From assembly GCA_964016885.1 (NCBI GenBank), contig OZ024741.1, forward strand, positions 230,640,001-230,704,000: a stretch of DNA of 64,000 bases, given 5' to 3'. The stretch is from Eledone cirrhosa. Taxonomy: Eukaryota. Under the pieces are notes generated by a model. It was not told the origin of the DNA. It did not search any database and worked only from the letters and a program-made list of their open reading frames with translations. The translations under genes and the position numbers were made by a program. Positions 25,823 to 26,724 of this stretch are shown here, piece by piece. How positions within the stretch are numbered: the stretch's first letter is position 1; every line of letters begins with the position of its first letter.

Positions 25823-26724
25823 TGAACGTGTATATAGTGTATTTTGCAATACACTGTATGCTTAATTAAAAGCATTTTAAAGACCTTACGCTATTGTTTT
25901 AGAGTAGTGTCAGTCTCACTTACTTTAAATTTTCAGCAAACAGGGGGAAATAAAGCTGACAGAGCTCTGTTTCGTACTATTTGTTACTTAACAAAGCTAA
26001 GTTTTCCACCTGTCTGCTGACAATCATGAATGTTTGATTCTTATAGAATTCTAGTAGTAATCAGGAACTGATTATACAGAGCGGTTGCCGGTGAAGCAGA
26101 AATTGAAAATTAGAATTGGTGCTCTGAAAGAGCGATATATATATGAATGTATATATAGTGTATTTTGCAATTCACTGTATGCTTAATTAAAAGCATTTCG
26201 AAGATCTTACGCTATAGTTTTAGAGCAGTGACAGTCTCACTTACTTTAAATTTTCAGCAAAAGGGGGAGATAAAGCTGACAGAGCTCTGTTTCGTACTAT
26301 TTGGTACTTATCAAACGTGTATTCTGAAAATCATGAATGTTTGATACTTAGAAAATTCTATACATACATTAAAATCGCTATTTCAGAGCACCAATTCTAA
26401 TTTTCAATATCTGCTTGACCGACAACCGCTCTGTATAATCAGTTCCTGATTATTACTAGAATTCTATAAGAATCAAACATTCATGATTTTCAGCAAACAG
26501 ATGGAGTACTTAGCTTTGATAAGTACCAAATAGTACGAAACAGAGCTCTGTCAGCTTTATCTCCCGCTGTTTGCTAAAAATTTAAAGTAAGTGAGACTGT
26601 CACTACTCTAAAACAATAGCGTAAGGTCTTCAAAATGCTTTTAATTAAGCATACAGTGTATTGCAAAATAAACTATATATACATTCATATATATATCGCT
26701 ATTTCAGAGCACCGATTCTAATTT
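25823..26724. mobile_element. Dispersed inverted insertion of the 320-bp HHR unit (~1.7 units on -, ~1.1 units on +) between (TA)n tracts
   Basis: 25823-26358 is the reverse complement of the satellite unit and 26373-26724 is forward. Copies share diagnostic variants (loop II CAAATA, stem I TAGCT). Confidence 0.92.
26487..26580 (+). ncRNA. Best-preserved U3-A8 type I hammerhead ribozyme motif
   Basis: AGCT|TTGATAA(26516-26522)|GTAC-caaata-GTAC|GAAA(26537-26540)|CAGAGCTCTG|TC(26551-26552)|AGCT. All three core-proximal stems are Watson-Crick. Confidence 0.85.

Follow-up and report, generated by a model that had tools for sequence, protein, structure and literature searches.

A two-armed insertion and a long array of one hammerhead-bearing repeat, probably both written by a PLE reverse transcriptase

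In the window, that is the whole 64-kb stretch of Eledone cirrhosa DNA that was analysed, a unit of 320 bp (GC 32%) is found both in a long tandem array and in a short copy at 25823-26724, and the question raised by this locus is how the two are related and by which route such arrays are born. The short copy is formed by two arms placed back to back that meet at 26359/26360, with a (TA)n tract on each side, as an earlier note on this DNA had described. With unit positions numbered from the hammerhead cleavage site, the inverted arm (25823..26360, minus strand, 1.7 units) runs from position 225 through one whole unit to position 143, where it ends in the internal (AT)n of the unit, here called site A; the direct arm (26359..26724, plus strand, 1.15 units) runs from position 125 to position 171, here called site B, which lies 26-29 bp beyond site A and corresponds to a PLE-type tail. 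The left target tract (25698..25823) is common to the end of the neighbouring PLE and the right one, identified in the sequence, occupies 26724..26743. Only one of the three hammerheads of the copy is intact, a type I motif with a U3-A8 core on the plus strand (26494..26573, predicted cleavage after 26552), and the two located in the inverted arm are damaged, one by a core change and the other by the loss of the 5' strand of stem I. Neither the copy nor the long array contains an open reading frame of at least 120 aa, and the contigs of four sequencing runs, compared with positions 25400-27200, included no piece spanning the copy and no indication of an empty allele.

The long array begins to the left of the window, which starts at G000:C2:230640001 in a genome of 3.0 Gb; its left end is 4.7 kb outside, and the 6.8 kb first attributed to it (1..6819, plus strand) are the right part of an insertion that actually measures 11.5 kb, from -4693 to 6819 in window coordinates. 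About 33 TA repeats at the left end are followed by a 380-bp inverted arm ending at position 143 (site A) and then by about 35 direct units, which terminate at 6819 at position 169 (site B) against a (TA)n tract (6818..6937, seen in the sequence). This is the anatomy of the short copy, twelve times as long, and the proposal that the array began as the same kind of TA insertion is supported by its left end, where (TA)n and an inverted arm ending at site A are present. The near coincidence of end positions claimed for the two elements is true of their right ends (171 and 169), but the left arm ends elsewhere, at 143. A dispersed repeat of 180 bp is inserted in the array at 3128-3310, and other copies of it are located at 34602, 37788, 41520, 48694, and 19410.

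The resemblance between the two elements could be due to a duplication or foldback of the local array at the DNA level, or to the spreading of arrays as extrachromosomal DNA circles. The arms of the copy share 75-93% identity with array units over 340-560 bp (E < 1e-110), and the 84-91% found with most of them, at a distance of 19 kb, would suit a local duplication. However, the copy differs from the array at four fixed positions (166, 280, 298, and 299), its nearest relatives are at other loci (2-4% distance, against 5-9% for the nearest array unit), and in the distance comparison the nearest array unit ranks only 69-156 among about 190-250; a FastTree of unit pieces, in which partial rows left little resolution, was used only together with these distances. 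Local duplication is refuted for the copy by these data, and the DNA routes in general leave unexplained the two fixed end sites, the strictly divergent arms, and the compensatory ribozyme changes described below, so that they are very improbable. Judged from these comparisons, the copy is an insertion independent of the local array and not its precursor, because of the four fixed differences and of the closest relatives lying at other loci. Its own subfamily marks are real: loop II is CAAATA in all three hammerhead copies, and stem I has an A-U pair where the array units have G.U (32/32). They distinguish subfamilies and not dispersed copies from array copies, since the array-type 26-mer, with 429 exact matches in the genome, is itself mostly dispersed; the type of the copy has 48. 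With a single intact hammerhead, the copy is likely a dead end, an ordinary dead member of its family.

The hammerhead is present on only one strand of the unit and is of type I, with a 4-bp stem II, a palindromic stem III, and a long stem I; its U3-A8 core is a variant already described in the available text of PMC4209133. Aligned to the full length of the Rfam HH9 model, the unit scores 19.9 bits against a gathering score of 52, and Rfam at the gathering threshold gave no matches in the 64-kb window; matches to miRNA families obtained at an E-value threshold were rejected as hairpin or TA artefacts. Across the subfamilies, stem II occurs with three different pairings and stem III with two palindromes, every change being compensated by its partner, and since the changes of stems II and III are paired across subfamilies they point to selection at the RNA level. 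The unit RNA is also highly self-paired (fold z = -4.0), and so is that of a 310-bp sister family (z = -4.7). A hammerhead in each unit, tandem units within 150-450 bp, GC under 45%, the lack of coding capacity, and a self-paired RNA are the features of a non-LTR retrozyme, and the 320-bp family is regarded as a new family of this kind that would work like a non-autonomous PLE, with predicted self-cleavage and a putative circular RNA.

The mode of insertion is indicated by the dispersed loci, which were sampled as the first 40 places of an internal 26-mer on C1, a sample blind to the ends and biased to young copies. Twenty-seven of the 40 loci are divergent and none is convergent; 39 have an arm ending at site A or site B, and 17 of the 27 divergent loci have one end of each kind. 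Among 74 piece ends, 32 fall at 142-143 and 28 at 168-178, which places the fixed 3' ends at two sites, positions 143 and 169-172, spaced by 26-29 bp, or up to 38 bp given the ambiguity of the (AT)n. A pattern for the junction of site B with TA gave 538 forward matches and 993 reverse ones, the latter partly listed twice, and none with the control. A target duplication of 14 bp was recognised outside the microsatellite at one locus (L004), the only clear case in 81 loci, the rest being hidden in TA. The arms are short (mean 322 bp, maximum 995 bp, 68 arms of an unbiased sample), cross the cleavage site seamlessly, and have evenly spread 5' ends: no pile-up at the cleavage site was seen among 138 arm ends, and a small pile at position 9 comes from the self-complement of stem I. 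The sharing of end points and TA flanks by the dispersed copies, together with the position of the copy outside the variation of the array, is the opposite of the outcome that the earlier note had indicated as contrary to its reading. The inverted 5'-truncated arm (27/40 loci) and the tail at one end only are features of a non-autonomous PLE; the signature described for PLEs is an inverted 5'-truncated copy with a tail of 30-40 bp at one end, to which the Hydra clade adds a (TA)n target (PMC8557442, in the text available), and in vitro two adjacent starting sites of reverse transcription define the tail, while both target strands are cut and extended (PMC11167929, likewise). Because inversion, one-end tail, and (TA)n targeting make up the PLE signature, the 320-bp insertions were very probably made by PLE machinery.

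The nature of the enzyme can be approached from the elements in the window. The PLE on the left (21254..25698) is a 5'-truncated Hydra-type element with divergent arms, an ORF remnant on the minus strand (23066-24046), and no homology to the unit; its terminal sequence runs to about 25698 and abuts the TA tract of the copy, instead of ending about 200 bp away as first reported. The second one (27183..29655) is degenerate, with inverted arms and a CxCX5C linker, and resembles the unit only over 19 bp (E 0.019). In both, the endonuclease is C-terminal after the CxCX5C linker, and a close relative at another locus (L132), with a frame of 743 aa, has a C-terminal GIY-YIG domain, CxCX5C, DKT, and CxxC plus CxH in the endonuclease, RWK appearing as RWR. 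C-terminal GIY-YIG, CxCX5C, DKT, and CxxC/CxH are given as diagnostic of the Hydra clade in the consulted part of PMC8557442, and on these motifs the neighbouring PLEs can be assigned to it. Hydra-type PLEs are very abundant in the present genome (62,009 candidates at first look, with open frames up to 776 aa); the clade has been described mainly from cnidarians. A special link between the unit and the adjacent PLE was considered and rejected, a match to the protein of the left PLE being found near only 4 of 81 unit loci within the fetched flanks; the nearness reflects a shared TA target and not kinship. The search for a PLE terminal sequence homologous to the unit, which covered 38 PLE loci, another 12 loci, and both window PLEs out of the 62,009 candidates, gave none, and a 166-bp query from the sister family gave no match at the DNA level, the sister family itself included. 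Among the junctions of single-armed copies, 29 in all, there are two in which the unit directly adjoins a Hydra-type PLE, of one family and at one and the same PLE position, in one case back to back and in the other in tandem (candidate chimeras at L129:1501-3625 and L024:1501-2190), which suggests that one enzyme may serve both RNAs. The driving enzyme probably comes from the Hydra clade.

Other TA-linked elements were observed in the window and in the genome. At L026:1280-1830 the unit is joined directly to a TA-targeting element that is also present in the window at 26745-27165, a candidate chimeric insertion. A palindromic insert between AT tracts (7774-8098) bears a minimal hammerhead on both arms and is related to the end of the left PLE. 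A third TA-flanked family (54894-56249 and 16480-17495), whose arms are divergent and whose tandem units measure roughly 430 bp, is common in the fetched flanks and may carry another ribozyme; a pattern scan found no hammerhead. A perfect palindrome of 472 bp (39567-40038) lies beside a TA tract, and at L134:1430-1540 an unrelated U3-A8 hammerhead motif located about 50 bp before a TA tract is probably the end of another PLE family.

How the arrays become long is best addressed in the sister family, which is very young, is homologous to the 320-bp unit, and has a length of 310/311 bp, a GC content of 35%, a canonical hammerhead core, and the same two end sites (for example L125:183-453 and L209-L236, among them G000:C1:1238300-1246300 and C1483:21170-27324). 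Its hairpin before site A and its long stem I keep the pairing with a different sequence, and a 21-mer of the family has 17,777 matches in the genome. In 13 of the first 16 loci the arms diverge and each has its own kind of end; arm length reaches 10 units. In this first set 77 of 81 full units are equal to the locus haplotype (15 TA-rich columns skipped), 12 loci carry 10 haplotypes, which differ between loci, and all seven loci with full units in both arms have the same haplotype in both. A second sample was directed to long loci, 12 being fetched of the 27 scored as long loci of one haplotype out of 109 candidates; all 12 are divergent, 179 of the 186 units are identical, and the longest arm and the longest locus have 17.9 and 20.4 units. 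In three of them (L225, L230, and L236) extra variants are fixed throughout the whole two-armed locus. Pooling the sets, 256 of 267 full units are identical to the locus haplotype, one end of each kind is found in 25/25 divergent loci, and most loci combine two long arms with a divergence near zero. The sister family settles how long arrays can arise, namely as clonal insertions of up to 20 units with both arms multimeric.

A different origin for the window array would be a short PLE-type insertion, of one to three units, which then expanded in tandem at the DNA level to 35 units, by unequal crossing-over or break-induced replication, a local amplification that is also assumed as the model of array growth in the text seen of bioRxiv 10.64898/2026.07.22.740005; it may also have been a fast expansion straight after insertion. 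Such growth does occur in this genome. An array of a young subfamily with 28.5 units and intact, doubly compensated hammerheads (L080/L081, G000:C14:23499006-23508239) has 27 interior units with T76 and A98 and a higher-order repeat of 12 units, while the dispersed alleles persist in its inverted arm and in the units at both ends, and T76/A98 are nearly absent from dispersed pieces; as read from these alleles, it is a DNA-level expansion inside a PLE-type insertion. This array was also considered as a master source and rejected, its private alleles being absent or rare in 21 dispersed loci. The array at C1:268.92M has a period-4 structure, and it and L088 probably grew at the DNA level as well.

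In the window array, the units diverge by 6.5% each from their own majority, their distance is flat with lag (0.114-0.122), the pairwise distance is 0.93 of the star expectation, and only 1 of 496 pairs are clearly sisters. Position 166 has C in both arms of the array (33 C, 4 A, 0 T), against 2 C in 133 dispersed pieces. A comparison of unit variants found no mark setting interior apart from end units, and neither neighbour similarity nor a higher-order repeat, the marks of unequal crossing-over, was detected in this array. Some signs in favour of DNA-level expansion are nevertheless present, namely linked private variants (none of 200 permutations reaches the observed amount of linked shared variants), one strong sister pair, and the shortness of the arms typical of the family, and some conversion or local duplication presumably took place after the birth of the array; moreover, 35 units are twice the longest young sister arm. 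The lack of lag dependence, the nearly star-like relationships, and the absence of an interior mark stand against it, and separate expansions of two arms would not easily give the long sister arms at near-zero divergence. Expansion after insertion is therefore a rather unlikely origin for the window array. Since the array is star-like, lag-flat, and carries one mark in both arms, it fits an old one-step insertion, and it was likely written long at insertion and then decayed by point mutation. The evidence favours arrays long at insertion, with DNA-level growth in a minority of them, and the transition from retrozyme to satellite proposed in the earlier note is supported, though more as a single step at insertion than as slow growth.

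As regards the template, both the short copy and the long array were probably written by a PLE reverse transcriptase, which probably rolled round one circular RNA. In the proposed sequence of events, tandem transcripts would self-cleave as dimeric hammerheads and would probably be ligated into monomer circles; the RT-GIY-YIG protein of a Hydra-clade PLE would nick both strands of the (TA)n target and start a cDNA on each, at site A through base pairing to the (AT)n of the RNA and at site B with little pairing; a cDNA would extend over anything from less than one lap to about 18, and the pair would be joined 5' to 5'. PLE reverse transcriptases are not known to have RNase H and would spare the template.

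Arrays could instead be written at insertion from linear transcripts that read through already existing homogeneous arrays, no circle being involved. The seamless arms across the cleavage site and the even 5' ends, which do not mark that site and weigh against circles, fit linear templates as well, and in vitro the anole PLE mainly uses RNA that has not been cleaved, according to the available part of PMC11167929. On the other hand, the copying of linear multimers cannot spread a new single-unit variant over 12-17 units, as in L225, L230, and L236, nor lengthen arrays, and none of the 25 divergent sister loci showed a junction into source flanks. If the enzyme jumped from one monomer to another, haplotypes would be mixed, 10 equal units arising by chance with a probability of about 1e-6 (pooled locus frequencies). 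Linear templates are consequently improbable. For a new variant to become uniform throughout a two-armed insertion, a monomer has to be turned into a multimer on a single template, for which rolling-circle reverse transcription of a circular monomer would be the simplest route.

Several known systems share part of these features. Metazoan non-LTR retrozymes (Cervera and de la Pena 2020, PMC7229834; Li et al. 2026, bioRxiv 10.64898/2026.07.22.740005) have, in the portions available, the type I hammerhead, low-GC tandem units of about 300 bp, dimers to large multimers, no coding capacity, and a PLE-rich genome, and the 320-bp family differs from them in its U3-A8 core. The hammerhead satellites of newt, schistosome, and cave cricket (PMC7229834) similarly form tandem satellite-like arrays with a hammerhead in each unit. 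Hydra-clade PLEs (Craig et al. 2021, PMC8557442) share the inverted 5'-truncated arm, the tail at one end, and the (TA)n target, and non-autonomous Chlamys elements are described there as multicopy head-to-tail insertions; unlike the PLEs of that source, as far as its accessible text goes, the 320-bp family has no ORF and both of its arms may be many units long, and the unit lacks homology to the terminal repeats of the PLEs examined here. The anole Poseidon PAc in vitro (Frangieh et al. 2024, PMC11167929) shares adjacent internal starts of reverse transcription bounding the tail, an AT-rich target, and the extension of both strands; unlike what the text at hand reports for it, site A of the 320-bp family has 9 or more bases complementary to the target and the template is a non-autonomous RNA.

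For retrozymes, mobilisation by PLEs and the synthesis of tandem cDNA on circles have been proposed (PMC7229834; bioRxiv 10.64898/2026.07.22.740005), and the retrozyme literature, including the available text of PMC8490949, proposes these or local unequal crossing-over. Insertion ends, inversions, tails, and one-haplotype arrays are not described in the parts of PMC7229834 and bioRxiv 10.64898/2026.07.22.740005 that were accessible, nor was a description of retrozyme insertion ends or of clonal two-armed arrays found in the literature within reach, outside of which supplements, repeat libraries, and subscription journals may hold them.

According to the accessible text of PMC7229834 and bioRxiv 10.64898/2026.07.22.740005, the insertion route of animal hammerhead repeats and the enzyme responsible have so far been proposals, and the ends with a PLE signature, together with arrays clonal in both arms, point to PLE machinery and a single, probably circular template. 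On balance, the genome may be seen as hosting a clan of circular-RNA retrozymes that is active at present and whose partner, a Hydra PLE, would write arrays of 2-11 kb in single events, and, as part of the same reading, a fossil series that would lead from identical 20-unit arrays to the 35-unit window array decayed by 6.5%. Besides unequal crossing-over, satellite arrays would then have a one-step route of origin, and the mechanism can be tested in vitro on a very young family whose start sites are mapped; if true, this would be satellite DNA born by rolling-circle reverse transcription.
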